Virus record (IMG/VR): IMGVR_UViG_2785511464_000001
Span: 1-64,000 of that record
Direction: 5' to 3' (one strand)
Source: a virus
Lineage: Duplodnaviria; Caudoviricetes
DNA length: 64,000 nucleotides
How positions within the stretch are numbered: the first letter of the stretch is position 1; the number at the start of each line of letters is the position of its first letter. Below are positions 6,270-23,987 of this stretch, piece after piece. Both the position numbers and the translations under genes were made by a program. Below the pieces are notes generated by a model. The model ran no database searches. It was not told the origin of the DNA and saw only the letters and a list, made by a program, of their open reading frames with translations.

Positions 6270-7190
6270 GTGGCAAAACAATCGAGCAATGCGGGTGCCG
6301 GTGCGGTCCGGCCTTCTCCTTCCCGGAGAGGAAGCCTCATCGAAGAGAGCCGCCCGCTCCAAACCTACCTGACCAGTCTTGATGCTATGCGACCAGCGCT
6401 GGTGCCCTCCGGGGCACCTGCGTTCGCATTCTCGCCGCTGAACGTGATGCCTAAGATCGCTCTGGGCAAGCTCGATGTCGAGCAGGCATCCGGGGGGCTG
6501 GTGCTCTCCGATGGTGGCGGGGTCCGTGTCGCGCCGACCGCCAGCCCGAGCGAATACTATCAGACGCTCCTCGAACTGCTGGAAGATGGTCGCCCCCTCC
6601 ACCTCGTCCCAGAGCCCATTGCCGCCCACTTCAAGCTTGGCGGCTACACCGTCAGCAAGCAGCACGACGAGTATGTGATGCGCACCGAGGACGTTCAGAC
6701 GTTCCCCGGCAAGCGCAACCGGCAGATGCGCGGCAACGTCAACAAGGCGCGGCGTCTCTGCGAAGTCGAGGTGTTCGACGGTGGCGACCCTGCGGAGTAC
6801 AAGGCGCTGGTCAAAACCTGGTATCGCCAGAACGCGGACCTGAAGTTCCGCACCTACGACAAGACCAGCATCGACTGGCTCCTCGAAAACTGGAGCGAGC
6901 TGGTTTCGCATGTGCCCGACCTCCTGTGCCTTGGTCTGCGCCATGATGCGCAATTAATTTCACTGAACATGGGTTGCCGGCTGACCGACCAGCACTGGAC
7001 CGCGTACACGCAGCGGTTCGACCGGCACGCTCCGGTGAAACACGCGAACATGCTCGGCTACCAGACGCTCGCGCACTCCTTCGCGGACTGCGCCCTGGAG
7101 AATGACGGGACCGCCGACACCAAGACGATCCGAGAATGGAAGGACCGGCTGGTGTCTCATAAAATCAGTTTCTACACGGTGAGGAAATGA
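6270..7190 (+). CDS. DUF2156 / MprF-C-like (Fem/GNAT fold) aminoacyl-transferase-like protein, no membrane domain
   Basis: EYVM...FPGKRNRQMRGNVNK resembles the DUF2156 'DY.Y...L.GK....KR...NK' pattern; ends with ND-G...IREWK. Confidence 0.5.
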   Translation: MAKQSSNAGAGAVRPSPSRRGSLIEESRPLQTYLTSLDAMRPALVPSGAPAFAFSPLNVMPKIALGKLDVEQASGGLVLSDGGGVRVAPTASPSEYYQTLLELLEDGRPLHLVPEPIAAHFKLGGYTVSKQHDEYVMRTEDVQTFPGKRNRQMRGNVNKARRLCEVEVFDGGDPAEYKALVKTWYRQNADLKFRTYDKTSIDWLLENWSELVSHVPDLLCLGLRHDAQLISLNMGCRLTDQHWTAYTQRFDRHAPVKHANMLGYQTLAHSFADCALENDGTADTKTIREWKDRLVSHKISFYTVRK

Positions 7191-8239: not shown

Positions 8240-9072
8240 TGCCGGCACCGATTGACAAGATCAAGACGCAGAACAAGTGGGTCCGCCGTCTCTGTGACGT
8301 CGAGGAGCAGGCGCTGCGCATGTGTGTCCCGGTCAACCTGGAGACCTGCGACCCCGAGGTGATCGTGGTGGACAAGGGGCTTGCCCGTGATCTCTTCGAT
8401 TACTGGCGCGTGGTGCTGTCCTCGGAGCCTCAGTCTCCGCACTTTGCCGGGGCAGGGCGCTCGCTTGCTCTCCTCGTTCGTGACCGGGTGTCCGGGGGCT
8501 TCCTCGGCGTGGTGGGGCTGTCTGACCCACCCAACCACTGGACCCAGCTGATCGACCACCTCGGGTGGCACAAGGAGCACGAGCATCTTCGCCTGGCGAA
8601 CCAGCATCGGATCGTGATGATGCGTCGGTGCCTGCCCGTGTTCGAGTTCGGACAGATGACCGGAGGCAAGCTTCTCGCCCTTGCGGCGACCAGCCGGGAC
8701 GTCATCCGTCTCCTGGAGTTGCGGTACAGCTACCAGTACCTCTTCTTCGGCATCAGAACGCTTCACGGCAAGGGCAGCCAATACAACCGGCTGAACCAGC
8801 GAGGCGTCAAGCTGATTGATGTTGATGAAACCGACCACGGCTTCTATGGTATGGAGCTGCGGAAGAAAGCGGTCTCATTCCTCCGGGGTGAGGCCGACGC
8901 ATACGGTAAGACTGCCACGTACACGCTCAGCGACCAGATCGACTACTGGCGCGAACGTTGGCTCCAAGCCCGAATGACGTCGCTTTCTGTTGGACCCACG
9001 ATACAGATCGATCCCGAACGTTACCGGCTGTCCGATCAGCTGGACGCCAAGCGGATGACCTCAGAACAGTAG
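8239..9072 (+). CDS. DruA/DUF4338-like (Mom-related GNAT fold) protein
   Basis: GRSLALLVRD...FLGVVGLSDP, GGKLLALAATS, TLHGKGSQYNRL. Confidence 0.7.
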   Translation: MPAPIDKIKTQNKWVRRLCDVEEQALRMCVPVNLETCDPEVIVVDKGLARDLFDYWRVVLSSEPQSPHFAGAGRSLALLVRDRVSGGFLGVVGLSDPPNHWTQLIDHLGWHKEHEHLRLANQHRIVMMRRCLPVFEFGQMTGGKLLALAATSRDVIRLLELRYSYQYLFFGIRTLHGKGSQYNRLNQRGVKLIDVDETDHGFYGMELRKKAVSFLRGEADAYGKTATYTLSDQIDYWRERWLQARMTSLSVGPTIQIDPERYRLSDQLDAKRMTSEQ

Positions 9073-9092
9073 CGCACCATGGAGGGCGAAGA

Positions 9093-9992
9093 ATGGCACT
9101 GAACCTCAAGAAGAAGAAACCGCAGTCTGCGGCCAAAGATGCGAAATTAATTGCACAGCCCGACGGCGCAGACGAGACCATCGACTTCCGCATCGTTCCC
9201 ATCGACGACATCGAGCCGAACGAGTACAACCCGAACGACATGGAGGCCGAGTTCTTCGAGGCCATCGTGCAGCAGGTGAAAGAGGAAGGCATGAACCAGC
9301 CGATCCTCTGTCGGGCCAATCCCGAGAAGGAAGGCAAGTTCCTGATCGTGGATGGCGAGCATCGCTGGCGCGCGTCCAAGGTGGCCGGCAAGAAGGTGAT
9401 CCCGATCATCGTCGTGCCGTTCGACGCGAAGCAGGCCAAGGTGCGCACGCTGTCGATGAACAACCTTCGCGGCCAGAATATCCCGATCAAGTTGGCCCGG
9501 CTTCTGGTGGACCTCCACAAGGAGTACAGCGCCAACGAAATCCGGGCGATGACCGGTATCGGCGAGGATGAGCAGACCTCCGTCCTCAGCCTCCTGAAGG
9601 TTCCCGACTTCAACCCCTCCGACGGCATCAAGATGACGGCTCAGGACGTCGAACGTCCGATCTCGGTCAGCCTTCTGCTGCTCCCGGACGAGCACACGGC
9701 CTACACCACCGCCATGAAGAAGGCGATGAAGGTCGCTGGCGATGACGTGACGGCGCTGATCGGTCACGAGGTTGCCAGCTACGACAACGCCATGAAGGCG
9801 GCTATGGGGCTGGCCGGCGCGAAGCTCAGGAACGTTGCCCTGGCACTGATCTGCGAGACGTTCAATCAGATGCCCAAGGATCAGCAGGCCGAGATCGCCA
9901 AGGCCGCCCACGCGAAGATTTACGACAAGCTCGCCAATGACGCAGAGGCGAAGGAGACCAAGAAGCAGGCGGCGGCGAAGAAAAGCGGATGA
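9093..9992 (+). CDS. ParB/Srx-like domain protein
   Basis: IEPNEYNPN, QPIL, IVDGEHRWRA, NNLRG. Confidence 0.88.
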   Translation: MALNLKKKKPQSAAKDAKLIAQPDGADETIDFRIVPIDDIEPNEYNPNDMEAEFFEAIVQQVKEEGMNQPILCRANPEKEGKFLIVDGEHRWRASKVAGKKVIPIIVVPFDAKQAKVRTLSMNNLRGQNIPIKLARLLVDLHKEYSANEIRAMTGIGEDEQTSVLSLLKVPDFNPSDGIKMTAQDVERPISVSLLLLPDEHTAYTTAMKKAMKVAGDDVTALIGHEVASYDNAMKAAMGLAGAKLRNVALALICETFNQMPKDQQAEIAKAAHAKIYDKLANDAEAKETKKQAAAKKSG

Positions 9993-10624
9993 CGAAGATC
10001 AAGATCAGGAAGAAGCGCGTCGGTCTCAAGAAGGTCAAGCAACGCCTTCCCGTGGAGGAGCGCGCCACCCTTCCTGATTGGGTCGATGTCCCGGAAGCCC
10101 CCACCTACGACCGTCGGAGTGGCGAAGCCCAAGAGTATGATGAGCAGCAGGTTGCTCGGGTCGAGCTCATGATGATGAAGGGTGTGCGCAGCAAGCGTCA
10201 GCTGATGGCTATGCTCGACATCACCGACGGTCGTGCGATGGATCGCTACATACGGCGCATCCACGCACGCTGGGAAATGGTGGGCACGACCCAGGAGTTT
10301 GCCCGACACCGGGGGGAGGGCTTAGCGCGCCTCGACCTGATCGAAAGCGAACTCTGGTCTCGCCTGTCGCAGCTGGAGCAGAAGGCAACACCGCAGGCAC
10401 CCTTGGGTTACCTGAGCGCCATCATGCGGGTCCACGAGCTTCGCTCGGAGCTGCTTGGTCTCACGCCGAAGGTGATCGCGCACATCGGGACGTCCGACGA
10501 CGGCGGATCGGACTTCGCTCGCCGGCTTGCTCAGCACGACCGCCTCACACAACTCGCTGCCCGCATGTCCGCGATGGTGGAAGAACGAATGAAGGTCATC
10601 GATCATGGCGGGGAAACCACGTAA
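9989..10624 (+). CDS. terS: Probable terminase small subunit
   Basis: HTH-like N-terminus, helical body ending R..LLGL; overlaps the start of terL. Confidence 0.6.
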   Translation: MTKIKIRKKRVGLKKVKQRLPVEERATLPDWVDVPEAPTYDRRSGEAQEYDEQQVARVELMMMKGVRSKRQLMAMLDITDGRAMDRYIRRIHARWEMVGTTQEFARHRGEGLARLDLIESELWSRLSQLEQKATPQAPLGYLSAIMRVHELRSELLGLTPKVIAHIGTSDDGGSDFARRLAQHDRLTQLAARMSAMVEERMKVIDHGGETT

Positions 10625-12485
10625 CGTTCCGCAGCGCGTGCTCGATGAGGTCGCGCAGGAGCTGCTGGCCGAGGTGGCGAACGACTATCCCGAAGACCTA
10701 GAGGTCGTGATGTCGTTCCTGTCAGAGGCCGCGCGCAGCCCTGATGCATTCAAGCGCTTGGTTCGGTTCAAGCACGAGCCGGTCGGTCCACGCGAGTTTG
10801 TCGAGGGCAAGGAGTTCATGGGAAAACCGACGGCCCTGTGGCCGTTGGTCATGCGTGAGTTCGAAGAACTCAACAGCGGCAGGTACACCGAAAGCGTGCT
10901 CACGGGCGGTATTGGCGTCGGGAAGACGCACCTGGCCTTGTACACGCAGGCTTATCAGCTCTACCTCCTGTCCTGCATGCGTGACCCTCACGCGGAGTTC
11001 GATCTGGACCCCACGTCCGAGATCGTGATCATCTTCCAGTCGCTCAACAAGCAGCTGGCCGAAGGCGTCGATTACACGCGATTCCGCGCGATGATCGAGA
11101 GCGCCCCTTATTTCAAGAAGCACTTCGCATTCGACACCGACATCACCAGCGAGATGCGCTTTCCGAAACGGATCATCGTCAAGGCGATCACGGGTCAGGA
11201 TACAGGCGCGATTGGTCAGAACGTGATCGGCGGCCTGATTGACGAAGTGAACTTCATGGCCGTGACCGAGAAGTCGAAGCTGTCGAAGGACGGCGAGGTC
11301 CACGATCAGGCCGTCAAGAATTACAACTCGATTGCACGACGCCGCGAGAGCCGCTTCATGCAGCTCGGCGCACTGCCGGGCATGCTTTGCCTTGTCTCCT
11401 CCAGAAACTATCCGGGCCAGTTCACCGACAAGAAGGAGGAAGAGGCCCGGACGAACCCGCGCATCTTCATCTACGACAAGAGGACTTGGGAGGTCCGACC
11501 CGAGAAGTTCACGAGCGAAAGGTTCCGGGTCTTTGTCGGGGACGCAACCCGGAAGCCGTATATCCTCACCGACGACACAGACGTCGCGATGCAGGATGAG
11601 CACTTGGTGGTGGACGTCCCCACGGAGTACCGGCACCAGTTCGAGACCGATCTGCTGGCCGCGCTGCGGGACGTGGCCGGCGTGGCTACCCTGGCGCTGC
11701 ATCCGTTCATGCACAACACCGAAGCCGTGACCTCTTGCTTCGGCACCGTTGAGTCCATCGGGTCGCGGGAAGACGTGGACTTCGTGGCCACCAAGCTGAA
11801 GCTATACCCCAAGAGGATCGCGAACCCGCAGGAGCCCCGACTGGCGCACGTCGATCTGGCGTACTCGAAGGACAGTGCCGGCGTCAGCATCGGCCATGTC
11901 GTAGGCTTCAAGGAGTGTAGCCGGGGCGATTACGTCGAGACCCTGCCGATCATCCGCTTCGACCTCGTGCTTGAGGTGAAGGTGCCTCGGGGCGGGGAGA
12001 TCGAGCTGTCGAACATCAGAAAGCTGCTTTACACGCTGCGGGACAAGATGGGGCTCCCAATCAAGTGGGTCAGCTTCGACGGGTTCCAGAGCCGAGACAG
12101 CATGCAAATCCTCTACCAGCAGGGTTTCGTGGTGCATTACCAGTCGATGGACAAGGACACCGACGCGTACGACTTCACCAAGCTTGCGTTCATGGACGGG
12201 CGCGTGCAGGCTCCGGCCCACCCGAAGGCCATGCGTGAAATGATCACCCTGGAGATCAACACCAAGGATCGCGTCATCGACCACCCGCCGCACGGCTCCA
12301 AGGACGTGGCCGACAGTATGGCCGGCGTCGTCTACGGTCTCACGATCCTCCGGGAAATCTGGCTCCGCTACAACATTCCCATGCAGAAGGTGCCGCGTCT
12401 GGTTCAGAACAGTAACGAACCCAAGTCCGCCACGAAGATCAAGAAGGGGGCCGGGGTCGATTTCGACGGGATGATCGATGAATAG
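10605..12485 (+). CDS. terL: Terminase large subunit
   Basis: Walker A GGIGVGKT, Walker B GLIDE, nuclease motifs HVDLA, FDGFQS, DHPPHGSKDVAD. Confidence 0.88.
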   Translation: MAGKPRNVPQRVLDEVAQELLAEVANDYPEDLEVVMSFLSEAARSPDAFKRLVRFKHEPVGPREFVEGKEFMGKPTALWPLVMREFEELNSGRYTESVLTGGIGVGKTHLALYTQAYQLYLLSCMRDPHAEFDLDPTSEIVIIFQSLNKQLAEGVDYTRFRAMIESAPYFKKHFAFDTDITSEMRFPKRIIVKAITGQDTGAIGQNVIGGLIDEVNFMAVTEKSKLSKDGEVHDQAVKNYNSIARRRESRFMQLGALPGMLCLVSSRNYPGQFTDKKEEEARTNPRIFIYDKRTWEVRPEKFTSERFRVFVGDATRKPYILTDDTDVAMQDEHLVVDVPTEYRHQFETDLLAALRDVAGVATLALHPFMHNTEAVTSCFGTVESIGSREDVDFVATKLKLYPKRIANPQEPRLAHVDLAYSKDSAGVSIGHVVGFKECSRGDYVETLPIIRFDLVLEVKVPRGGEIELSNIRKLLYTLRDKMGLPIKWVSFDGFQSRDSMQILYQQGFVVHYQSMDKDTDAYDFTKLAFMDGRVQAPAHPKAMREMITLEINTKDRVIDHPPHGSKDVADSMAGVVYGLTILREIWLRYNIPMQKVPRLVQNSNEPKSATKIKKGAGVDFDGMIDE

Positions 12486-12640
12486 CTACAGATCGTGGAG
12501 TGACACTGCCCTCCGGGGCTTTGAAGACGAATTGGATCGCCGAGGCATACGCTTCATCACCAAGAAGTTCACGGTGACCACCGAACAGAATGTAGACGCC
12601 CTCGCCGCCGAGTGGGGCCTAACGAGGAAAGACCATAAGA

Positions 12641-13147
12641 ATGACCGCCGCAGGAATAGAAGAGCTTAGGGAACGCGACCAGCTGGTTGTCGAGGCCGCG
12701 CTGCCCGCCCACATGATGTACCTCATGGTCGAGGAGTGCCAGAAAATTGGGGTGGAGCTTCGCGCCGACGTGCAGGAGAAACTGAACCTTGCCGCCGTGG
12801 CTCCTCTCACACGACTGGACGAACTCTCGGTGTCCCGGACGGCCAAAAGGATCGACGAGCTGGCCCGGACACTTCTTCACGACCTGTCCCCGGACGACCC
12901 CCGCGACGGGCTCTATTCGTGCGCGATGTTCTGTCTGACCCTCGTGGACGAAGGGTTCCTGCATGACCGCACCAATCAGGCGGTGCTGGTCTCCCTGCTG
13001 CTGATGTCCGACCTGGAGGACGACCGGAAGGACGAGGCGGGGGAGGAGGCTGTGTGGCGCATGACGCAGGCTCGATGGAAGAGCGCCGCCGGGAAACTGC
13101 ATGTTCGGGCAGCCCTGCAGGGGGTCTACAATATCCGGCGACATTAG
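12641..13147 (+). CDS. Hypothetical protein
   Basis: Co-directional ORF with phage-like codon use. Confidence 0.6.
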   Translation: MTAAGIEELRERDQLVVEAALPAHMMYLMVEECQKIGVELRADVQEKLNLAAVAPLTRLDELSVSRTAKRIDELARTLLHDLSPDDPRDGLYSCAMFCLTLVDEGFLHDRTNQAVLVSLLLMSDLEDDRKDEAGEEAVWRMTQARWKSAAGKLHVRAALQGVYNIRRH

Positions 13148-13148
13148 G

Positions 13149-13198
13149 TGCAATTAATTGCACATTTTCCTTGATCGGGAGCGGCCAAATGCTAGGAT
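13149..13198 (+). promoter_or_regulatory. Palindrome plus promoter for the PPDK operon
   Basis: Palindrome 13149-13162, 8 bp, TTGATC-N16-TAGGAT. Confidence 0.65.
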
Positions 13199-13230
13199 GA
13201 ATTGAGCCACACCGAACCAAGGAGGGTTGC

Positions 13231-15222
13231 GTGGATAAGCGAATTTTCAGGTTCTCCCAGAACCATTGCGATTGGGCCGGCGACGATGCGGATGCCAAGA
13301 AAATCCTTGGCGGCAAAGGTGCCGGCCTCGTGCAGATGTGTCGTGCAGACATGCCTGTCCCGCCGGGCTTCACGATCACCACGGAAGTCTGCAACGTCTT
13401 TCTGGCCATCGACCCGGAGCAGGGCAGCATCGGCACGAAGGACGAGTTCCTTGACCACCTCATGCAGGGCGTTGCGGAGCATGACCAGTGGCTGAGCACC
13501 GAGTTCGGGTTCACGCCCCTCGTGTCCGTGCGCTCAGGCGCACCGATCTCGATGCCCGGTATGATGGATACGATCCTGAATGTCGGCCTGACGGACGAGA
13601 CGCTTCCCGAATGGGAGGATCGCATCGGACAGCGCGCCGCGCTCGACAGCTATCGCCGCCTCATCCAGATGCTCGGAGCCACGGCCTATGGCGTCCCCAT
13701 GCCGCTGTTTGACGAGCACCTTGAGGACATCAAAGAGACCGCCGGGGTCTCCGACGACAAGGAGCTGACCGTTACGGACCTCCAAGAGCTCATCGAGTGC
13801 TACAAGATGGTGTTTCAGGCGGTCGTGCAGCATGCGTTTCCGCAGAGTCGCACAGAGCAGCTGCGCGCCGCCGTGCGGGCCGTGTTCGATAGTTGGATGA
13901 ATGAGCGCGCCATCGAATACCGGAAGCTCAATCAGATCGACGGGGCGATGGGCACCGCCGTGAATATTCAGGCGATGGTCTTCGGCAACATGGGTGACGA
14001 TAGCGGGTCAGGCGTGGCGTTCACCCGAGACCCTTCGACGGGCGAGAACCACACGATGGGCGAGTACCTGCACAACGCGCAGGGTGAGGACGTGGTGGCG
14101 GGTATCCGAACACCGTACTCGCTGGACGAACTCTTTGAGACGAAGAGCCCGCCGTGGGCCACGGAGTTCTGTACGCTGTGCTCCGATCTGGAAGATATGT
14201 ACGACGACATGGTTGACTTGGAGTTCACCGTTCAGCAGGGCAAGCTGTGGTTGCTCCAGAGCCGAGTTGGGAAGCGCTCCGCGCGCGCCGCCTTCAAGAT
14301 CGCCGCCGATCTGGTGGAGGAAGGTGTGATCGACAGGGGTGTGGCCCGGTCCCGGCTGACGGCACAGCAGTTCAAGACGGTGCGCAGGCCGACGATTGAC
14401 CCGTCGTTTGACGTGCCCCCGGCGCTCGTTGGACTGCCTGCGTGCCCCGGCGTCGTGACAGGCGTGCCCGTTCTCTCGTCGAAGGATGCAATTAATTGCA
14501 ATGAACCGTGCATCCTGATCACCAACGAGACGACGCCAGACGACATCGGAGGCATGAACGCCGCCGTGGGCGTGCTGACGAAGACTGGTGGTGCCACCAG
14601 CCACGCGGCAGTCGTTGCTCGGGCGATGGACAAGGCTTGTGTGGTTGGTTGCACCGGGCTCGATATTCTTGGCGACTGGACGGACGTGACGAAGGTCACA
14701 ATCGACGGGGCGACCGGCAGAGTCTGGTTCAATGTCGATGTTCCCGTGATCGACAGTTCCGATGCAAAGGAAGTCGCCACCGTGATGGGGTGGTGTATGG
14801 AGGTTCTGGGCTGCTGTGAGGCGGCAGTGGTCGATCTTGGCGCAGACAAGCCGCACACGATCATGGCCGCACACTGGTGGGGCAACGAAGATGTTCTGAA
14901 CGCAGTCCTTGACGGAATTGCCGAGCTGCCGAGCAGGCAGCACGTCACGCTCGACACGCGGTCGCCGAACGATCTGGCACCGTTCTGTGACTACATGCTG
15001 GCGGACTGCTTCGGCGAAACTGCGCCCGATCATGAGTTCAAGGAGGTCATAATCAGTGTTCTGAAGCAGAGGAGCAAAGAGCTGAAGGGACTGTCCCTCG
15101 CACCGTGGGAGGATATGCCGGAGCTCTACTCTGAAGGGTTCACGCCCGCTGGCGCAGGGTCGCAACACGTACCATTGGCCGTGCCCGCTGACTATGCCGC
15201 CTTCTCCGTTCTGGGTCGGTGA
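13231..15222 (+). CDS. PPDK-like dikinase with ATP-grasp and phospho-His domains but no pyruvate-binding barrel
   Basis: LGGKG, VSVRSGA..SMPGMMDT, QAMVFGN, GEDVVAG, DLEFT, LQSR, GGATSHAAVVAR; 663 aa, with only about 160 aa after the His domain. Confidence 0.9.
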   Translation: MDKRIFRFSQNHCDWAGDDADAKKILGGKGAGLVQMCRADMPVPPGFTITTEVCNVFLAIDPEQGSIGTKDEFLDHLMQGVAEHDQWLSTEFGFTPLVSVRSGAPISMPGMMDTILNVGLTDETLPEWEDRIGQRAALDSYRRLIQMLGATAYGVPMPLFDEHLEDIKETAGVSDDKELTVTDLQELIECYKMVFQAVVQHAFPQSRTEQLRAAVRAVFDSWMNERAIEYRKLNQIDGAMGTAVNIQAMVFGNMGDDSGSGVAFTRDPSTGENHTMGEYLHNAQGEDVVAGIRTPYSLDELFETKSPPWATEFCTLCSDLEDMYDDMVDLEFTVQQGKLWLLQSRVGKRSARAAFKIAADLVEEGVIDRGVARSRLTAQQFKTVRRPTIDPSFDVPPALVGLPACPGVVTGVPVLSSKDAINCNEPCILITNETTPDDIGGMNAAVGVLTKTGGATSHAAVVARAMDKACVVGCTGLDILGDWTDVTKVTIDGATGRVWFNVDVPVIDSSDAKEVATVMGWCMEVLGCCEAAVVDLGADKPHTIMAAHWWGNEDVLNAVLDGIAELPSRQHVTLDTRSPNDLAPFCDYMLADCFGETAPDHEFKEVIISVLKQRSKELKGLSLAPWEDMPELYSEGFTPAGAGSQHVPLAVPADYAAFSVLGR

Positions 15223-15253
15223 AGTAGACTCAGGCAAAACAGGAGAAGAACCC

Positions 15254-15559
15254 ATGCCCCTTGTGTTGAGCCTTCGCGAAGGCGACGATTTTTACGTTTC
15301 CGAGCAGCAGTTCTCGGTGGACCGCATCTACGACGAGACCAGCTTCGATCTGGTTCGGGGTGACGCCGCCGGGGAGGTGTCCGAGCCGATTGCGGTGACC
15401 GAGCTGCAGGCCGTGGAGATCATGCCCGACGTGTTCGTGTCGGCGGGAAATCTGTTCCAGAAGGGGATCATTCGGGCGGTTATCGACGCGCCGCGAGACA
15501 TGCTGATCTTGCGCGGCGACAAGTACAGATCGCAGGAGACCAGCGGTGACCATTCGTAA
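15254..15559 (+). CDS. CsrA-like protein
   Basis: MPLVLSLREGD...IRAVIDAPRDMLILRGD mirrors CsrA MLILTRRVGE...VRIGVNAPKEVSVHREE, with an insertion. Confidence 0.5.
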   Translation: MPLVLSLREGDDFYVSEQQFSVDRIYDETSFDLVRGDAAGEVSEPIAVTELQAVEIMPDVFVSAGNLFQKGIIRAVIDAPRDMLILRGDKYRSQETSGDHS

Positions 15560-15758
15560 CTATGAAGTGAGCGCCCACGCCATCGAGCGGGGCCGAGGGC
15601 ATGGGCTCTGGGGCGACACGGAGAAGAGACTTCGCCGGATGGCGCGGCGCGCGGCCCCCGTGACATCGGAGCACGGAAACCGGCGGTTCAATGATTGGAT
15701 CATGCTTGTGAAGGACGGCACGATCCAGAGCGTAACCCGGCTCTTCGAGAGTCGGTGA
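15546..15758 (+). CDS. Small hypothetical protein (S.HA.ER motif, DUF4258-like)
   Basis: VSAHAIER; overlaps the upstream stop. Confidence 0.45.
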   Translation: MTIRNYEVSAHAIERGRGHGLWGDTEKRLRRMARRAAPVTSEHGNRRFNDWIMLVKDGTIQSVTRLFESR

Positions 15759-15786
15759 CACCAAACCTAATGGCAAGGAGGCCAGC

Positions 15787-16290
15787 ATGATCAATCGTCT
15801 CAAACCGAACGGCAAGCTCCCCATCCAGCTCGGGTGGAAGCACGCCAAGCTGAAACTCGACATCACCGGGGGGCCGTTCGACGCATACCCCACGTTCAGT
15901 TCTTACGACACCTTCGGTGTTTGCGTCCGTGCCGAGCAGGTGCCGGCGTCCCTCGTTGACGTAAATCTGGCCATTTCGGACTTCTCCGTGCCTCGGGACG
16001 CGATCCGCACGGGGAAAGCCATCCGGGATACCATGCAGGCGGCGCTGGACGGCAAGAGGGTCTATATCGGCTGCATGGGCGGCTGGGGCCGTACGGGTCT
16101 GTTCATGGCTCTGATCGCCAAGGCCGCAGGGATCAAGAACCCGGTCGAGTTCGTCCGCGAGACCTACACGCCCAAAGCCGTCGAGACGCGGGAGCAGCAG
16201 CTGTACGTGGACACCTTCGACGTCGAAGAAATTCAGAAATGGCTGGTCGTAGCGGCCTGGCGGGCGCGGTTCCGGCGGCTGTTTAGCTGA
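15787..16290 (+). CDS. PTP / dual-specificity phosphatase (CX5R), copy 1
   Basis: ISDFSVP acid loop, GCMGGWGRTG, AVETREQ. Confidence 0.85.
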   Translation: MINRLKPNGKLPIQLGWKHAKLKLDITGGPFDAYPTFSSYDTFGVCVRAEQVPASLVDVNLAISDFSVPRDAIRTGKAIRDTMQAALDGKRVYIGCMGGWGRTGLFMALIAKAAGIKNPVEFVRETYTPKAVETREQQLYVDTFDVEEIQKWLVVAAWRARFRRLFS

Positions 16291-16300
16291 TCCGATTTCG

Positions 16301-16350
16301 TGCAATTAATTGCAAAATCTGGTTGCTCCCATGTGGCAATAAGGTAGGAT
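16301..16350 (+). promoter_or_regulatory. Palindrome plus promoter
   Basis: Palindrome 16301-16314, 8 bp, TTGCTC-N16-TAGGAT. Confidence 0.65.
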
Positions 16351-16380
16351 CATGGGAGTAGCCAATACGCACCAAGGAGG

Positions 16381-17460
16381 GTGATCGTGGCCCTGACAGA
16401 CCCGGAAGACACTCTTGCATATCATCAGAGCCGTGTTCTGACCGCGCACCGTGACATGAGCAGCGTTCCTCTGCCCACTGTGGCGGATCGGATCGAAAAA
16501 TACCTTGTGGCTTCTGCGGAGCCAAAGGCCGTGCCGGAGACCGAGGCGCTGTGGTTCTATGGAATGAACCATGCCGTGGCCACGATACAGTCCCGGCGCG
16601 CGCCGCTGGAACCTCTCGACGAATGGGAGCTGTCTTTCGTCCGGGGGTATCACGAGTTGATGGGGGAGAAGGCCGTTCGGGCATTCTACTACCTGATGCT
16701 GATCTGCACCCGTGAGAGCCGGCATAACAAGTCGCTGATAGGCGATCTCCCCTACATCAAGCAGAAGTTCGGAGCCCCGGTCGCATCGTTCCTGCAGTCG
16801 GTGAACGGCGGCGAGTCCGGCATCCACAAAGCGCTGGTGACGACCCCGCCGCAGACGACACTCGGAAACTACGTCGAGTGCCTCCGGTGGCAGTTCTATA
16901 ATAGCAAGTGGCATTCCGGTTACGGCGGGAAGGCGTGGGGGCAGGTGACCGATTGCCTCGCCCGGTTCGTGAGCGGCGAGTTCACCGCAGAAATGATGCT
17001 CGATACGGTGTGGACGCTGAGCCACAATAACGGGCCGATCTTTAACAAGGGGCTGTGCTACCAACACTATCACGCACCGTCGCTGATCCGCATCCTCGAC
17101 ATACAGCGTTCGGGCCAGATACCCGAGGCCATTCTGCACGACCCCGTGGCCGCAAAGTACAGCACGCCGATCATGCGGCAGCGGATGGACGCACTGGCCG
17201 AGAGGGTGCCCGAGATCGGGTCGTTTGTTGATTGGGTCGTCGTCGAAGCCCTCGGCTCGGTGCAGAGTTACGCGGCGGACATCAAGAAGCAGACGCAGAC
17301 GCACGGCATCTCGGAGGCGGGGAAGCACCTGAACTCGTTGAAGGCGGCAAAAATCCTAGCCGAGATCGAGAAGGCCGCGCAGGAGGACGCCGAGTTTAGC
17401 AAGAAGTGGCTGACGATCATGCCCGACGTCCACGTCGAGAAAATTCAGAGAGCAGCCTGA
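16381..17460 (+). CDS. Enzyme-like hypothetical protein
   Basis: Motif-rich (ICTRESRH, GYGGKAW, DTVWTLSHNNGPIFNKG); strong SD; start may be GTG 16387. Confidence 0.7.
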   Translation: MIVALTDPEDTLAYHQSRVLTAHRDMSSVPLPTVADRIEKYLVASAEPKAVPETEALWFYGMNHAVATIQSRRAPLEPLDEWELSFVRGYHELMGEKAVRAFYYLMLICTRESRHNKSLIGDLPYIKQKFGAPVASFLQSVNGGESGIHKALVTTPPQTTLGNYVECLRWQFYNSKWHSGYGGKAWGQVTDCLARFVSGEFTAEMMLDTVWTLSHNNGPIFNKGLCYQHYHAPSLIRILDIQRSGQIPEAILHDPVAAKYSTPIMRQRMDALAERVPEIGSFVDWVVVEALGSVQSYAADIKKQTQTHGISEAGKHLNSLKAAKILAEIEKAAQEDAEFSKKWLTIMPDVHVEKIQRAA

Positions 17461-17475
17461 GCCAAGGAGGGCGGT

Positions 17476-18149
17476 ATGTCCAAAGTAAAGAACATCGACG
17501 ATTACCTGTATGGGGACCGTCACAGCGCGCGGAAGATCAAGGCGGGGAACCACACTGTCTATGACGCCTCCGGGGGCACAGCGGCTACGGAAAGCGCTGC
17601 TACCATAGCCACCCACCCCTGAAGCTTCCGGGGAGCGACTTGGTGATTTACGGGGGCAGCTGCCTGAACCCGGCGGTCACGGATGCCGACATCTACATCG
17701 GGTTTGACTCCGGCATGAGCTTCACGCCACGGCAGTTCCCGTGGACCGAAGGCCACGAGTTGTTGTTCAAGATACAGGACATGGGCACTCCGAATAACGT
17801 CGATCAGTTCCGCCAGCTTATCGACTGGACGTACCAGCAGCTGCAGGAGGGGAAGAAAGTCCACTGTGGTTGCATTGGCGGGCACGGGCGGACAGGGACG
17901 TTTCTCGCTGCCCTGGTGTCTCTTTGTGGCGAGAAGGACGCCGTGTCCTATGTCCGGGAGAACTACTGCCACAAGGCAGTCGAGAGCCGCCCCCAGATCG
18001 AGTTCCTGTCCAAGCACTTCGGGATCAAACCTGCCAAGGGATCGAAGTCCACGGGCGGCTCCGCGTACGGCAGTAAAGTCTCGACGGCCCTGAAAGAAAG
18101 GACGTTTCCGCCCATCAGGAACAACGGCTGCATCTGGGACGAACTGTGA
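17476..18149 (+). CDS. PTP / dual-specificity phosphatase (CX5R), copy 2; apparent frameshift at the G5 run 17572-17576
   Basis: IQDMGTP, HCGCIGGHGRTG, KAVES..Q; the SD-led ATG at 17476 is in a different frame from the catalytic ORF. Confidence 0.8.
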
Positions 18150-18196
18150 AATTAATTGCACTTTTCCCTTGCTTGGGAGCCCCCGGAAGGTAGAAT
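18147..18196 (+). promoter_or_regulatory. Palindrome plus promoter
   Basis: Variant 18147-18160, 8 bp, TTGCTT-N16-TAGAAT. Confidence 0.65.
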
Positions 18197-18232
18197 GATG
18201 GCAAGGATACAGAGGACAACAAGGAGGTTGCG

Positions 18233-19021
18233 GTGTCCGTGAAGATCAAGAGCTCCGTGAACGCTATGAAGGCCATCAAGAAGATCGGCATTCCGCAGTC
18301 GTTGTACGACTGGCTGGAGAGTAGCGCTGTTGACGTGAAGCTCACCTCCAAAGAGTTCAAATTCTCCGTGCCGATCAAGGGCGGAACGCATGAGCTCAGC
18401 GTACCGGTAAGCCTCGACGATCTGCATAAGATGGTCACTGGAACCCTGCCCACCGTCACCAAGATCAGCCTCGGGAAGTCACTCGCCGAGACCATCACCA
18501 CGATTGCCGCGCTTTGCGAGGATGCCGGGGAGCCCGAAGCCGACAAGCCGGCAGCCTCGAAGAAGTCCGGCGGGACGCTCGGTTCACTCCCCCCGATCAA
18601 GCCGAAGACGAAGGCAGCAACGCCAGAGCCGTATGCGGGGTGGGGCACCTTCGATCTGTCCCAGATGAAGACCGCGAAGCCTGTCCCGTTGAGCTTGGCC
18701 GACCGCATGTATCAGCCGGTGTCCGGGACGTCCGGCAACAGCCGATACTACGTCGTTGCAGGCAATCAGGATATTCGCGTGGCCGCGCGCTACAAGGACG
18801 GTATTCTGTCTGTACGTGTCGAGGGGCCGAAGCTGGAGAAGCACATGAGCGCTATCTGCAGCAGCGGCTTCGACCAGAAATCAGGCAAGAACTACGCATC
18901 CGTGCATCTCAGCGTGGTCAATGATCAGCTGGCTGCAAAGTCGCTCGGTGCGCTTCTTCTTGGGATGGGGGTGCAGCTGGATACCGCCTACCCGAACCTC
19001 AATCTGATCAAGGGGGCCTAG
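18233..19021 (+). CDS. Hypothetical protein
   Basis: SD AAGGAGG, GTG start, 262 aa. Confidence 0.65.
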   Translation: MSVKIKSSVNAMKAIKKIGIPQSLYDWLESSAVDVKLTSKEFKFSVPIKGGTHELSVPVSLDDLHKMVTGTLPTVTKISLGKSLAETITTIAALCEDAGEPEADKPAASKKSGGTLGSLPPIKPKTKAATPEPYAGWGTFDLSQMKTAKPVPLSLADRMYQPVSGTSGNSRYYVVAGNQDIRVAARYKDGILSVRVEGPKLEKHMSAICSSGFDQKSGKNYASVHLSVVNDQLAAKSLGALLLGMGVQLDTAYPNLNLIKGA

Positions 19022-19234
19022 ATGCTGACGCGCGAACAGTTCGACAGTCTGGACGTCGGGGATCACGTGGAGACTTTCTCGATATTCCCGAGGATGACCG
19101 AAGAACCGGTTGTCCTTCAGACGACGCAGGTGGGTCTCGACCGCCGCGAGTTCACCGCCACGTTCTGCGGGGTGACGCTCGGTGTGTGGACCTGCTCGGT
19201 AGATAAGCAAGGGGGGCTGAAATGGGCTCTGTAA
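19022..19234 (+). CDS. Hypothetical protein
   Basis: Abuts the upstream stop codon. Confidence 0.5.
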   Translation: MLTREQFDSLDVGDHVETFSIFPRMTEEPVVLQTTQVGLDRREFTATFCGVTLGVWTCSVDKQGGLKWAL

Positions 19235-19629
19235 GCCAGATGGCGATGTACGAGGTCGCGGACACCCTCGGCTTCGAGGTTTCCTACTCCAGCGCCACCG
19301 GGCGGGTGCAGGGGGCCGGGCAAAACGTCCTGGCGTTCGGCAACCTGCCCATCACCTTCAACAGCAGGATCGTAAGTTCTGCCCTCTTGAAGCAGTCGAT
19401 CCTGCTGATGGTCCGGGTCAAAGGGAACCTCGCCTTGCTGGTCGAGGTCACCGGGGACAGGAACCCGAAGACCAAGGTGCATCTCCTGAACAGGGCGCAC
19501 ATGGACCCTATCGACAATTGGCTCGAAGAGAAGAAACCCAAGACACCCGCCGCGTGCCTGAAGCTTCTCGGAAAGGCCGTGGTGAAGAGCTTTCAAAAGA
19601 CCCCGGTGAAGGGTTGGACCGAACTGTGA
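19222..19629 (+). CDS. Hypothetical protein
   Basis: Overlaps the upstream gene; co-directional. Confidence 0.55.
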   Translation: MGSVSQMAMYEVADTLGFEVSYSSATGRVQGAGQNVLAFGNLPITFNSRIVSSALLKQSILLMVRVKGNLALLVEVTGDRNPKTKVHLLNRAHMDPIDNWLEEKKPKTPAACLKLLGKAVVKSFQKTPVKGWTEL

Positions 19630-19644
19630 AGAGGCTGCTGACGA

Positions 19645-22044
19645 ATGAAATTGACGATCTGGACGTCCGCCGAAAGCGACATCGTAAAGCGGACATTCGC
19701 GAGCGTGCTTCGCTCATTCCGACCTGACGTCCCAGAGCACGAGTTCCTGAGCTGGAGAGACCCCGAAGAAGAGCCCCCGGCCCCAGCGGCAGGGGGCATT
19801 GTCTTGGTGTGCGGCAAGCGCGCGCTGGACACGCTGCAGAGACACAAGATCGCGCCAAAGAACCGCACTGTGAACTCGATGCGGGAGAAGCCGATCCCGC
19901 ACGGAGGCGGGCACTACCTCGTGACGCACGACCCGAACGTCGTGAACTCAGAGGCGGACAAGCTTGACGTCATCGAGTGGGACGTCCGTCTGGCAGTGCG
20001 TCTCATCAGGACGGGGCAATTGCTTCCGCCCCTCGGAGCGTATCGGTGGGTCAACGACTACCAGCCCATGATCGACTGGATCGAGAAGCGCTTCAAGGCG
20101 ACCGGCGGGAAGGCCGTTGATGTCACGAGCGACACCGAGACCATGGGGTTCTTCCCGTGGTATGCCGACAAGGACATCGTGTCGATCAGCTTCACCGCGA
20201 AGCCCGAGACCGCCGAGGTGCTGTATCTGGGGCCGCAGAAACCGCCGATCCCGCTCGATCCAAGCGTCAACCTGTTCGATCAGATCAAATGGCTCCTTAC
20301 CTCCCCGAAGGTGAAGATGCGCTTCGCCAATGGCAAATACGATCTGGTCTGGATCGCGGAGAAGTGGGGCATTGAGTGCACGAACTTCAAGTTCGACACG
20401 ATGCTCGTCGGATCGCTGCTCAATGAGAACCGGTCGAACTCCCTGAACCTCCATGCCAAGGTGATGACGCCCATCGGCGGATACGATGATCCGTTTAACA
20501 GCAAGTTCGACAAGAGCAGCATGGAGAAGATACCTGCGGACGATAATTTCCTGATTTATGCCGGCGGGGATACGGACGCCGCCCATCGCGTTGCGAACAC
20601 TCTTCGGGACGAGCTGATGGATGATCCGCAGCTTGCCAACTTCTACATCACGGTCCTGCACCCCGCTGCCCGGTCCTTCGAGAAGATCGAGCGGCGCGGC
20701 GTGTTGGTGGATCAGGAGAAGTATGCCGTGCTGCGGCAGGACTTGCGCAAGTCGATTGACGAGGCCCACAAGGTCACGCTCGACCTGCTGCCGAACAAGA
20801 TGCGGATCAAATACCGGGACCGCATCGAGAACCAGTTGCAGCAGGGCAAGAGCCCCATGTTGCCGTCGATCCTGAAGGAGTTCTTCTTCTCGCCGCACGG
20901 TTTGAACCTGAAGCCGAAGGAGGTCACCGCCAAGACCCACGAGCCGTCAATGGCGAAGTCCCACCTGCGGCAGTTCGCGAACGTTCCTGAAGCGTCGGCG
21001 ATGGTTGCGGCCCTCACTGAGGCCGACAGTGCGATGAAGACCCTATCGACCTTCGTGGACGGTTTCCTGAAGCACTTGAGGCCGGACGGGCGCTTCCACA
21101 CGACATACTTCCTGGCGAAAGGGGAGTACGAGGGTTACGACGATGACGAGACCGGGACGAACACGGGGCGGTTGTCGGCGAAGAACCCTCCGTTTCAGGT
21201 GACGCCGAAGAAGACCAAGTGGGCGAAGCGCATTCGCGAATGCTTCCCGGCCCCGAAGGGCAAGCTGGTCCTTTCCTGCGATTATAGTCAGGGTGAGCTG
21301 AAGGTGGTGGCCTGCGTCGCCCCCGAGAACACCATGCTGCAGGCGTACGAAGACGGGCTCGACCTGCATGCTGTGACGGGGGCCAAGCTGGCGCATGTGG
21401 ACCTGACGGAGTTCCTGAGTTGGCAGGGTCACGCGGACGAGGAGCTGGCCGCGCTGTACGAGAAGAACCGGGGCAACGCGAAGCCGGCCAATTTCGGATT
21501 GCTCTACGGAATGCAGGTCGAGGGCTTCAGGGCCTACGCTTGGGCGAACTACGGCATCAAGCTCTCCTACGCGGAGGCCGAGGCCATGCGCAACGCCTTC
21601 TTCGAGCTGTATCCGGGGTTGCTGACCTACCACAGCAAGCAGAAGGATTTGGTCAAGTTCGCTCAGATGGTCCGCAGCCCTCTGGGGCGTGTGCGGCACC
21701 TCCCAATGATCTCCGCTTGGGATCGTGAAATCCGGTCGAAGGCCGAGCGGCAGGCCATCAACTCACCGATCCAGTCGTGCCTGTCCGACATGATGCTCTG
21801 GGCCATCGCCCTGATCGACGACGCGTACCCGAACGGGGAGATCGAGGTGGTCGGAATGATCCACGATGCCTTGATCGCGTATATCCCGGAACAAGACGCA
21901 GACCTGTGGGCTGGACGGTGTGTCGAGATCATGTCTAACCTCCCATTCCACGAGGTTGGTTGGAAGCCGCAGCTGAAGTTCACCGCAGACGCCGAGGCAG
22001 GAACGAACCTCGCCAACATCAAGAAGCTGAAGCTCGACGTTTGA
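19645..22044 (+). CDS. polA: Family A DNA polymerase with 3'-5' exonuclease and a UDG-like N-terminal remnant
   Basis: Exo DTET and DTML; TGRLS; motif A DYSQGELKV; motif B RGNAKPANFGLLYG; motif C HDAL. Confidence 0.95.
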   Translation: MKLTIWTSAESDIVKRTFASVLRSFRPDVPEHEFLSWRDPEEEPPAPAAGGIVLVCGKRALDTLQRHKIAPKNRTVNSMREKPIPHGGGHYLVTHDPNVVNSEADKLDVIEWDVRLAVRLIRTGQLLPPLGAYRWVNDYQPMIDWIEKRFKATGGKAVDVTSDTETMGFFPWYADKDIVSISFTAKPETAEVLYLGPQKPPIPLDPSVNLFDQIKWLLTSPKVKMRFANGKYDLVWIAEKWGIECTNFKFDTMLVGSLLNENRSNSLNLHAKVMTPIGGYDDPFNSKFDKSSMEKIPADDNFLIYAGGDTDAAHRVANTLRDELMDDPQLANFYITVLHPAARSFEKIERRGVLVDQEKYAVLRQDLRKSIDEAHKVTLDLLPNKMRIKYRDRIENQLQQGKSPMLPSILKEFFFSPHGLNLKPKEVTAKTHEPSMAKSHLRQFANVPEASAMVAALTEADSAMKTLSTFVDGFLKHLRPDGRFHTTYFLAKGEYEGYDDDETGTNTGRLSAKNPPFQVTPKKTKWAKRIRECFPAPKGKLVLSCDYSQGELKVVACVAPENTMLQAYEDGLDLHAVTGAKLAHVDLTEFLSWQGHADEELAALYEKNRGNAKPANFGLLYGMQVEGFRAYAWANYGIKLSYAEAEAMRNAFFELYPGLLTYHSKQKDLVKFAQMVRSPLGRVRHLPMISAWDREIRSKAERQAINSPIQSCLSDMMLWAIALIDDAYPNGEIEVVGMIHDALIAYIPEQDADLWAGRCVEIMSNLPFHEVGWKPQLKFTADAEAGTNLANIKKLKLDV

Positions 22045-22106: not shown

Positions 22107-23987
22107 ATGAGCGAAGAGAACAACGGGCAGGGAAAGCCCCAGACGCAGGTGTTGCGTCTGGTATCTGTCGATAACAAGATCGCGAAGGCGGACGCCGACA
22201 GCAAGAACGTCGTCCACTCGAACGCCCTCGACCCCGAGGACGAGTACAAGAACTGGTATGTCGGTGGATCGAATGATGCCGGCGTGCTGGAACCCCCGTA
22301 TCCTCTTCGGCATCTGGACCGACTGTCCCAGGAGAACAACGCCCTGTCTCCGTGCATTGAGGCGATGGTCACCAACGTGGACGGCACCGGGTACGACTTC
22401 GAGCGCACAGGGGAAGACGCCGAGACCAGCAAGGACGACGCCAAGATCAAAGAGCTGCGGGAGTTCTTTGACGAGCCGTGGCCGGGTCAGTCCTTCACGA
22501 GCATCCGAAAGCTCCTGCGGCGAGACCTGGAGCGAACCGGAAACGCGTATCTGGAAATCCTTCGCAACGCGCAGGACGAGATCGTGTTCATGCGTCACGT
22601 GGACAGCAAGATGATGCGCCTTGTCAATTTGGACAGCGGCGTCCCGGTGGACCGCAAGGTCAGGCGCAAGGGCCGCGAGGTCACCATCACCATCAAGCAG
22701 CGCGAGCGTAAGTTCGTCCAGCTGCTCAACGGCACCACGCTGGTCTACTTCCGCGAGTTCGGCAGCTCCCGAGACCTCAACAAGAGGACCGCCGCTTGGT
22801 CCGAGAAAGGCCAGCGGCTGCCGGCCAAGGACCGCGCCACCGAGATCATTCACTTTACTGCGCTGCCCGACGCCCACACGCCTTACGGCGTCCCGCGTTG
22901 GATCAGCCAGCTGCCGTCTGTGTTGGGCTCCCGCAAGGCCGAGGAGTACAATCTGGACTTCTTCGACAACGGCGGCATCCCGCCCGTCCTGATCTTGCTT
23001 CAGGGCGGCACGCTCCAGCCTGAAACGAAGGGCGCGCTTGATCTGAAGATGGGCCGGGGAACCGCGTCCAAGAAGAACCGGGTTCAGGTTCTGGAGGTCA
23101 TGCCCTCCGGCGGCACCTTCAACTCCCCCAACCAAGCACGCGTCACCGTCGAGCGGTTCGGAGCCGAGCGGCAGGACGACAGCATGTTCGAGGGATACGA
23201 CGAGAAGTGCGAGACGCGTGTCCGACGGGCCTTCCGCCTTCCACCGATCTTCGTCGGCGCTGCCGAGGACTACTCGTTCGCATCGGCCACGGCCTCTTAC
23301 GCGGTGGCCGAGGCTCAGGTGTTCAAGCCGGAACGGGACGAGTTCGACGAGATCATCAATGTGAAGCTGGTCGATGCCATGGGCTACGACGGTTACCGTC
23401 TGGTCTCCAAGCCGCTGGTCATCGAAGACGCGACCATCAAGCTGCAGGGCATTCAGATGGCGATCTCCACCAACGCCGTTGAGAAGGAAGACGTGCTGTA
23501 CGAGATCAACGAGGCGTCCGGCACCGACATTCGGTACAAGGAGCCCGAGAAGCCCAAGCCTGGCTTCGACGAGGACGGGAACCCGCTGCCTGGCTTCGTG
23601 CCTCCTCAGCCGGATGCTGCCGGCGCTGGAGCGGTGGACGACGAGGGCAACGTCGTTCAGCTCAAGACGAAGACCAATACGGTCTCCACCGACAAGCCGA
23701 CCAGCGAGCCCAACGGGAAGGGGTATACCGGGGCGATCTCCAAGGAGGCTACCACGGCTCTCCGCCTGATGACGTCGCTTCGCAAGCGTGACGTCGAAGG
23801 GGTGATCGCTTTCGCGAAGGTCGCCAACGAGATGACCGGGACGCAGGCCGAGGAGTTCGGTCGCGCGCTGGCCACGGCACGTTTCCCGAATGCCGAACGG
23901 TACGGTCTGGATGACCTGGGTGCCCTCTCTGCGGCCACGATCAATGTGATGGCCGGCCACGGCTGCGGGTGCTCCCATGCCGGTTAA
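22107..23987 (+). CDS. Portal protein (PBSX-like)
   Basis: TGNAYLE, EIIHF, YGVPRW, FFDNGGIP, FRLPPIFVG. Confidence 0.9.
   Translation: MSEENNGQGKPQTQVLRLVSVDNKIAKADADSKNVVHSNALDPEDEYKNWYVGGSNDAGVLEPPYPLRHLDRLSQENNALSPCIEAMVTNVDGTGYDFERTGEDAETSKDDAKIKELREFFDEPWPGQSFTSIRKLLRRDLERTGNAYLEILRNAQDEIVFMRHVDSKMMRLVNLDSGVPVDRKVRRKGREVTITIKQRERKFVQLLNGTTLVYFREFGSSRDLNKRTAAWSEKGQRLPAKDRATEIIHFTALPDAHTPYGVPRWISQLPSVLGSRKAEEYNLDFFDNGGIPPVLILLQGGTLQPETKGALDLKMGRGTASKKNRVQVLEVMPSGGTFNSPNQARVTVERFGAERQDDSMFEGYDEKCETRVRRAFRLPPIFVGAAEDYSFASATASYAVAEAQVFKPERDEFDEIINVKLVDAMGYDGYRLVSKPLVIEDATIKLQGIQMAISTNAVEKEDVLYEINEASGTDIRYKEPEKPKPGFDEDGNPLPGFVPPQPDAAGAGAVDDEGNVVQLKTKTNTVSTDKPTSEPNGKGYTGAISKEATTALRLMTSLRKRDVEGVIAFAKVANEMTGTQAEEFGRALATARFPNAERYGLDDLGALSAATINVMAGHGCGCSHAG

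Follow-up and report, generated by a model that had tools for sequence, protein, structure and literature searches.

We analysed a 64,000-nucleotide stretch of viral DNA (the window), taken from the start of an IMG/VR provirus of 95,770 bp (record IMGVR_UViG_2785511464_000001; Duplodnaviria, Caudoviricetes), in which a shortened relative of pyruvate, phosphate dikinase (PPDK) is encoded together with two cysteine phosphatases and a protein of 359 amino acids (aa), designated here U359. We found that the PPDK-like protein had kept the ATP-grasp and phosphohistidine domains of PPDK with intact catalytic residues and had lost the triosephosphate isomerase (TIM) barrel for phosphoenolpyruvate (PEP) and pyruvate, that these genes were strictly linked across phages, and that U359 had no match in solved structures, Pfam or other viral families. 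The 663-aa protein is almost certainly not a PPDK, and in all likelihood it has been mislabelled in print as a “metabolic PPDK”. The best explanation, to which we give about an even chance of being correct, is that it is a PPDK-derived, ATP-driven phosphohistidine donor serving an acceptor on a separate protein, U359, with the two phosphatases acting in the same pathway. The genes concerned are:

13231–15222, plus strand: PPDK-derived dikinase, 663 aa, GTG start; from Pfam, PPDK homology and a structural model.
15787–16290, plus strand: PTP1, dual-specificity phosphatase (DSP)-type cysteine phosphatase, 167 aa; from its P-loop CMGGWGRT and Pfam.
16381–17460, plus strand: U359, 359 aa, all-helical orphan fold; from a model and fold and family searches.
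17476–18149, plus strand: PTP2, DSP-type cysteine phosphatase; P-loop CIGGHGRT at 17871–17891, general-acid Asp in IQDMGTP.
18233–19021, plus strand: U262, conserved 262-aa protein (phrog_25950), found after PTP2 in most related loci.

An earlier note on this DNA, made from its letters alone, had described a 663-aa PPDK-like open reading frame (ORF) with the motif GGATSH, two CX5R motifs and a 359-aa ORF, and all of these were recovered with the same coordinates and motifs. The dikinase begins with an ATP-grasp domain (about residues 1–395; Pfam PPDK_N, 1.4e-48), followed by a swivelling phosphohistidine domain (about 400–496; Pfam PEP-utilizers, 5.4e-21) in which GGATSH occupies residues 453–458 and the codon of the catalytic His458 lies at 14602–14604; a linker helix then ends at about residue 523. 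Solved PPDKs matched the protein at E 1.9e-127 over residues 3–486, with similarity reaching ~523. Both domains are homologous to those of PPDK (EC 2.7.9.1; C. symbiosum 1KBL/1DIK, Flaveria 5JVN), with which the phage protein has in common the Thr-Ser-His motif and the catalytic Lys, Arg, Asp, Glu, Gln and Arg. In a set of 59 viral-contig homologues, K29, R101, D329, E331, Q343, R345, T456 and H458 were among the residues conserved in at least 95% of sequences. By alignment, we take these to be K22, R92, D321, E323, Q335, R337, T453 and H455 of C. symbiosum PPDK. As judged from this alignment, the conserved residues are those of both partial reactions at the nucleotide site, plus the phospho-carrier His.

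In contrast, the TIM barrel of PPDK (~340 aa) has as its counterpart in the phage dikinases a divergent alpha/beta tail of 140–300 aa. When the profile of the dikinase family was compared with solved PPDKs (E down to 1e-171), the alignment ended at PPDK residues 529–537, which is the linker preceding the barrel. The NCBIfam equivalog model for PPDK, TIGR01828, scored 556.8 bits, below its cut-off of 843 bits, and was matched at positions 2–549 of 865. PF02896 (PEP-utilizers_C), which represents the PEP/pyruvate barrel, did not match the 663-aa protein in Pfam searches, and a six-frame search did not find it anywhere in the provirus, with the control positive in 14 of 14 genomes. Thus, the proposal of the earlier note that this is not a pyruvate enzyme was borne out, including its suggested check for a barrel encoded elsewhere; its estimate of an unrelated tail of about 160 aa also agreed with our data, as PPDK similarity ends at ~523–537 and leaves ~140–165 aa. 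The short form is a family trait. In a survey of dikinase lengths (71 ORFs listed, 64 passing the completeness filter), the median was 666 aa, with 179–296 residues past the catalytic His. Canonical PPDK has roughly 420 residues past this position.

The tail itself (about residues 524–663) is a fast-evolving small alpha/beta domain, modelled with a predicted local distance difference test (pLDDT) score of 77, and no position beyond W499 reached 95% conservation in the 59 homologues. Close relatives have the motifs VPVIDSSDAPE, AAHWWG, CFG and a terminal PADYAAFSVL in common, the last of which is also seen in remoter members, as an amphipathic motif at the C-terminus. Fold searches with the tail gave weak and mixed matches (Z of 5.1 or less). 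Pieces of TIM barrels made up many of them, among which were enzyme I (Z 3.2) and HpcH aldolases (Foldseek probability 0.3); STAS domains and FabK were matched as well. Going by the model, it is possible that the tail is a decayed half-barrel. Because it is so poorly conserved, a PEP/Mg2+ site in this region is hard to reconcile with the data.

Barrel loss and the presence of U359 and the phosphatases went together without exception. We found 80 IMG/VR loci with U359 (31–67% identity), in which, wherever the flank sufficed, a short dikinase was present and the order was dikinase, PTP1, U359, PTP2, U262, DNA polymerase and portal. Both phosphatases occurred in 75 of these loci, and the remaining five had no separate upstream or downstream copy in the available DNA; at least for L023 and L024, the reason is that the contig stops directly behind U359. 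A reverse search of IMG/VR from the dikinase yielded 61 complete short ORFs, and U359 and a phosphatase accompanied all 51 of those with sufficient flank (at least 3.5 kb downstream). The linkage to phosphatases in relatives, which the earlier note had considered decisive for its idea, therefore held. By contrast, neither U359 nor a phosphatase was found beside any of seven full-length PPDKs (877–936 aa) with flank, and the module was also absent from three more canonical PPDKs on unverified “phage” contigs (L089–L091). Besides, it was detected in Stenotrophomonas phages DLP3 and DLP5 and in many Vibrio siphoviruses; one of the latter, Vibrio phage J26, has the upstream phosphatase only and no PTP2. 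The module is a fixed set of a large 80–100 kb siphovirus lineage, located just upstream of the phage DNA polymerase, and its five genes very probably form one functional unit. Its extent had been given as 13231–18149, which was too short: the conserved region continues past 18149 to at least 19021, the end of U262.

Two PTP-fold genes had been proposed in the earlier note. Both are real DSP-type phosphatases, but the start assumed for the second, 17640, is only an internal TTG; the true start is the ATG at 17476, and the gene is frameshifted. In PTP1, CMGGWGR spans residues 96–102 (Cys96 codon at 16072–16074) and the general acid is Asp65 in ISDFSVP. PTP2 carries a -1 frameshift in a run of five G (17571–17575), so that its N-terminal 33 codons are in one frame and the catalytic part is in another, open from 17565. 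Translation across the break, with X placed there, gave a protein that aligned end to end with the intact 235-aa homologue of L006, the closest relative, and the homologue of Rhodobacter phage RcZahn (256 aa) is intact as well. The frameshift could be due to provirus decay, a homopolymer sequencing error or slippage. Pfam models PTP-SAK and Tc-R-P matched PTP2 at 30.6 and 29.2 bits, above the cut-off of 27, and PTP1 just below it, at 23.2 and 21.6 bits. The 80 loci had 78 upstream and 78 downstream phosphatase ORFs, of which only a few lacked the CX5R(S/T) loop; its form was CMGG[WIKR]GRT in PTP1 and CIGGHGRT in PTP2. An Asp located 24–36 residues (~31) before the Cys, in the context I-x-D-x-x-x-P, was found in 74 of 78 PTP1 and 77 of 78 PTP2 ORFs. 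This motif resembles that of the PRL/PTEN/Cdc14 type, and PTP-fold RNA triphosphatases are known to be without a general-acid Asp. Since the Asp motif is kept, PTP1 and PTP2 look like O-phosphomonoester hydrolases and not like phosphate carriers or triphosphatases. We also noticed that the “thymidylate synthase” of DLP3 and DLP5 (L004 13563–14339; DLP3_141) is really the PTP2 phosphatase (HVGCIGGHGRTG), and that PHROG 17568 (phrog_17568) bears the same wrong label.

The third component, U359, had been set down earlier as a protein of no recognized kind, and this description stood. An AlphaFold2 model based on 47 sequences was confident (pLDDT 91.5) and all-helical, ending in a long helix and a hairpin. 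It had no fold match in PDB (best Foldseek E 0.42); an exhaustive VIA fold search gave a best Z of 4.5, with matches mostly to the C-terminal long helix, and the U359 profile matched no PDB sequence under E 0.2. No Pfam, NCBIfam or PADLOC family was assigned to it, and the 47 members scanned against Pfam had none in common. In BFVD, no named family was found; the matches were four unnamed proteins (24–34% identity over ~300–320 columns), which we take to be members of U359's own family, and one short unnamed protein. Searches by sequence features in the ESM Atlas returned no usable match for U359 or U262. The family comprises 443 close homologues and 1,690 representative clusters at 50% identity, indicating a widespread module, and among the matches listed at the top all were standalone proteins of about 226–409 aa. 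U359 was present in only 8 of ~186,000 species-representative genomes, mostly on phage-sized contigs. Residues conserved in at least 93% of 72 homologues include R100, R111, E112, R114, H115, G182, G183, E204, D208, H215, N216, N222, K223, D240, Q242 and R243, and about 40 residues in total are near-invariant. Judging from residue types, the invariant basic, acidic, His and Asn residues would be typical of a metal- and phosphate-binding site. Two genes of Vibrio phage J26 (L005 12034–13912) are misannotated as well: its “putative membrane protein” is the U359 homologue, and its “pyruvate decarboxylase” is that of U262.

These data suggest the following scheme. The ATP-grasp domain would load His458 (ATP to AMP and His~PP), as in PPDK chemistry, and phosphate or water would then strip the gamma phosphate, leaving His~P on the swivelling domain. 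That the dikinase autophosphorylates on His is highly probable, because its nucleotide site and His domain are intact and by analogy with PPDK and with VadK, a mycobacterial relative discussed below. As a short alpha/beta tail of low conservation has apparently taken the place of the PEP/pyruvate barrel, pyruvate could not be the recipient of the phosphate. No conserved acceptor site was seen in the tail, which makes transfer to a separate protein most plausible: the phosphate would be delivered in trans to an acceptor bound by that protein. Its strict linkage and enzyme-like invariant residues make U359 the best candidate for this role. In our estimate, the chance that U359 provides the acceptor site is about one half. 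PTP1 and PTP2 would hydrolyse O-phosphomonoesters in the pathway, where they might erase the product, recycle it or make the substrate ready. As for the target, we tentatively suggest that it is linked to nucleotides or DNA; this guess comes from the constant neighbourhood of the family A DNA polymerase (PolA) and from restriction resistance of DLP3 DNA, both of which are indirect. Somewhat more speculatively, the module might be a three-part split swivelling-histidine system, in which the donor passes phosphate to U359 as an orphan-fold phosphotransferase and from there to a substrate linked to replication, which would be a nucleotide, a group borne by DNA or a replication protein, with the two DSP phosphatases completing the cycle. 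If true, both the enzyme fold and the phage pathway would be new, and the pathway would be shared by well over a thousand lineages of phages.

Reuse of these modules has precedents. Swivelling-His dikinases with acceptors other than pyruvate include rifampin phosphotransferase, PigC and glucan-water dikinase (GWD). In rifampin phosphotransferase, PigC/RedH, PEP synthase and GWD, the ATP-grasp and mobile His modules are likewise combined with other acceptors, but there the acceptor domain is fused and of a described fold, whereas the candidate acceptor module of the phage is separate and of an orphan fold. NCBIfam matches of the dikinase to RPH, PigC and RedH were weak.

Several observations weigh against a donor that serves U359. 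A simple linear pathway does not account for an operon that encodes both a kinase-type enzyme and two phosphatases. The tail is folded and has motifs kept in close relatives, so that, on the model, it may itself bind the acceptor. PTP2 is frameshifted here and absent from J26, and thus must be dispensable at least sometimes. No fused dikinase-U359 protein occurred among the candidates listed, which is a weak negative. Finally, the whole genome of this lineage is syntenic, and adjacency to PolA is therefore not independent evidence of a role in replication.

Among other explanations, the one that survived best is a nucleotide-pool or DNA-modification pathway feeding PolA, which is a specific version of the donor explanation and not in contradiction with it; we regard it as unlikely in this specific form. 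Here the phosphatases would strip canonical nucleotides or a DNA-linked group, U359 would modify the base or sugar, and the dikinase would re-phosphorylate the modified nucleotide or activate a DNA hydroxyl, a function likened to that of T4 dCTPase, hydroxymethylase and dNMP kinase. The position of the module, always directly upstream of PolA, is consistent with this pathway, although the synteny is lineage-wide and not module-specific. Many invariant basic and acidic residues of U359 would suit a phosphorylated ligand. Besides, DNA of the related phage DLP3 was resistant to all 15 restriction enzymes tried, from which its authors inferred modified DNA (PMC7326821); however, candidate modification genes located upstream (5120–8239) could alone explain such resistance. 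Our search of the provirus revealed no homologue of thymidylate synthase or ThyX, which counts against a hydroxymethyl-pyrimidine route, and the general-acid Asp of the phosphatases is better suited to alcohol or phenol leaving groups than to nucleoside triphosphates. In the literature searched, the DLP3 remark was the only functional, virion-proteomic or restriction information tied to the module, and we found no description of the phage module, its phosphatases or its orphan-fold partner.

A protein-directed regulatory His kinase is a further candidate, which appears more doubtful. Its model is VadK (M. tuberculosis Rv1127c), a barrel-less PPDK relative described in 2026, which autophosphorylates His422 with ATP and Mg2+, acts through partner proteins and regulates the methylcitrate cycle; the VadK paper makes no mention of phages (PMC13400623). 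Similarly, in the phage His458~P, or the phosphorylated protein itself, would bind and modulate a protein of the host or the phage, which could be U359, PolA or an enzyme of the host; resetting protein phosphorylation would fall to the DSPs. Both VadK (NF004531/PRK05878, “short PPDK”) and the phage dikinase consist of ATP-grasp and His domains without a barrel, and the NF004531 model matched the dikinase at positions 17–483 of 534 with 424.8 bits, just below the curated cut-off of 456. DSP-fold enzymes commonly act on proteins, and the recurrent amphipathic motif at the C-terminus of the dikinase could be a docking peptide. However, VadK is made up of the ATP-binding and His domains only (the model has 534 positions), whereas the phage protein has an extra C-terminal domain, and no phosphatase or U359-like partner has been reported for VadK, whereas the phage dikinase is encoded together with both. 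In addition, the ~40 near-invariant residues of U359 resemble an enzyme active site more than a substrate surface, and no target can be named. The present observations would extend the VadK finding, that barrel-less PPDKs can be histidine kinases, to viruses, with dedicated phosphatases added.

The remaining explanations are far less probable. The earlier note had also suggested a His-to-Cys relay resembling the phosphotransferase system (PTS), in which the CX5R proteins carry phospho-Cys instead of hydrolysing phosphoesters. The mobile PEP-utilizer domain is the module used by enzyme I, and two Cys-based phosphate-binding proteins are co-encoded; but both match DSP-fold families of Pfam (PTP-SAK and Tc-R-P, PTP1 below cut-off) with the general-acid Asp kept, the only HPr-like match in the provirus was below cut-off, PF02896 was missing and no sugar-transport parts were seen. 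We obtained no positive evidence for such a relay and consider it very unlikely. The HPr-like match (PTS-HPr, 20.3 bits against a cut-off of 23, around EHGLHYRKAT) is probably spurious; it fell in a 402-aa lysine/alanine-repeat protein in a segment that looks helical and DNA-binding-like. This protein (provirus positions 71032–72240, outside the window; L087 7032–8240) has an acidic N-terminus, AKKP(A) repeats and a histone H1-like HC2 match.

At least as improbable is a polymer dikinase-phosphatase cycle acting on a host or phage glycan. The plant starch cycle (GWD/PWD with SEX4 and LSF2) resembles the phage module in combining a PPDK-type dikinase with two dual-specificity-fold phosphatases, and GWD with SEX4 and LSF2 is the only known natural pairing of this kind. 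A weak GWD1_pHisD match (E 0.0025, 17.8 bits) and the sugar-nucleotide and glycosyltransferase genes of the relatives RcZahn and RHph_Y1_11 point in the same direction. However, this match was below the cut-off of 27 and lay beneath the stronger PEP-utilizers match, the dikinase resembles true PPDK much more closely than it does GWD, domain order differs, as does the setting in a phage, Pfam scans detected no carbohydrate-binding module in any protein of the module, and homology is confined to the shared superfamilies.

The least likely alternative, a working PPDK kept as an auxiliary metabolic gene with a pyruvate site formed by the tail (e.g., two half-barrels paired in a dimer), is the reading of Vibrio phage genes that the earlier note had mentioned and that does exist in the literature, where the tail was described as a four-stranded “TIM-barrel topology” and PEP was docked into it (PMC12038007), and it agrees with GenBank annotations and with an alpha/beta tail whose weak matches are mostly TIM-barrel pieces (enzyme I and HpcH-type aldolases included), but it is opposed by the absence of PF02896, the TIGR01828 score of 557 against 843, the lack of at least 95% conserved positions past W499, the low Z of all structural matches of the tail, and a truncation perfectly linked to U359 and phosphatases that are both absent beside full-length viral-contig PPDKs. 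A PDRP/DUF299 regulator was not found in the provirus either. These “auxiliary metabolic” PPDKs of Vibrio, Stenotrophomonas, Rhizobium and Rhodobacter phages very probably never touch pyruvate, and ecological claims based on them would need revision. Identifying the target of the donor that we propose instead could bring to light a new strategy by which phages replicate, modify DNA or take over their hosts.

Two small conserved genes separate the dikinase from PTP1. The earlier note had the phosphatases following the dikinase; this order is correct, but it had passed over these genes:

15254–15559, plus strand: conserved 101-aa protein; AGGAG before the ATG, weak CsrA-like C-terminal motif IDAPRDMLILRGD.
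15546–15758, plus strand: conserved 70-aa protein.

The 101-aa protein matched Pfam CsrA at E 0.017 and 15.5 bits, below cut-off, and its gene is kept between the dikinase and PTP1 in many relatives. At the other end of the module, the “pyruvate decarboxylase” of Vibrio phage J26 is a U262 homologue.

A palindromic motif accompanies the module at three intergenic or gene-end positions:

13148–13163, no strand: perfect 16-bp palindrome GTGCAATTAATTGCAC, intergenic, 68 nucleotides upstream of the dikinase gene.
16300–16315, no strand: copy with one mismatch, 66 nucleotides upstream of the U359 gene.
18146–18161, no strand: copy with one mismatch, overlapping the PTP2 stop codon, 72 nucleotides upstream of U262.

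One more copy, at 14486, lies within the dikinase gene. Allowing up to three mismatches, the window contained 28 sites against 0.11 expected, and the provirus 54, of which 45 were intergenic. Often a site either precedes a plus-strand gene by 40–110 nucleotides or directly follows a stop codon; further examples are at 3464, 22052, 25931 and 55301. Palindrome-linked promoters had been proposed for the region. The palindromes are real, but they represent a genome-wide intergenic motif, and a sigma-70 scan of 12400–19700 found no sigma-70-like promoter beside them. Its distribution points to an operator, promoter or terminator element used throughout the phage.

With regard to gene neighbourhood, the dikinase is preceded by a ParB-like gene (8958–9992), a 211-aa ORF, the terminase large subunit (10605–12485, assigned by synteny) and two small ORFs. 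It is followed by two small ORFs, PTP1, U359, PTP2, U262, two more small ORFs, the polymerase and the portal:

19645–22044, plus strand: family A DNA polymerase (PolA) with 3'-5' exonuclease, the constant downstream neighbour of the module.
22107–23987: portal gene, directly after PolA.

Rhodobacter phage RcZahn and Rhizobium phage RHph_Y1_11 have the same annotated gene order; besides PolA and portal, their only labels are “pyruvate phosphate dikinase”, “tyrosine phosphatase” and “hypothetical”. PADLOC matched no protein of the module to a defence-system family. Upstream, 5120–8239 encodes a dCTP deaminase/dUTPase-like protein, DUF488, a protein with an LPG_synthase_C-like domain (aminoacyl-tRNA transferase type) and a 350-aa ORF without a Pfam match; these genes may be a separate DNA-modification set, and a 2026 paper on tRNA-dependent adenine hypermodification is possibly relevant to them (PMC13219725). 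In L006, a DruA-domain protein adjoins ParB.

The provirus has an estimated completeness of 97% and is 93% coding, and GC content of the window is ~61%. A megablast of 12 kb against phage records found no near-identical record, and the exact U359 protein is also encoded on a 3.98-Mb contig. A large serine recombinase (Resolvase, Recombinase, Zn_ribbon_recom) is located at the provirus end (94109–95770, outside the window; L088 14109–15770), consistent with an integrated temperate phage. Finally, the post-portal gene of L006 (15635–17074, corresponding to about window position 23977 onward) matched the Pfam Acb1 domain, so that its product may be a head-associated protein that carries a phosphodiesterase domain of the anti-CBASS type.

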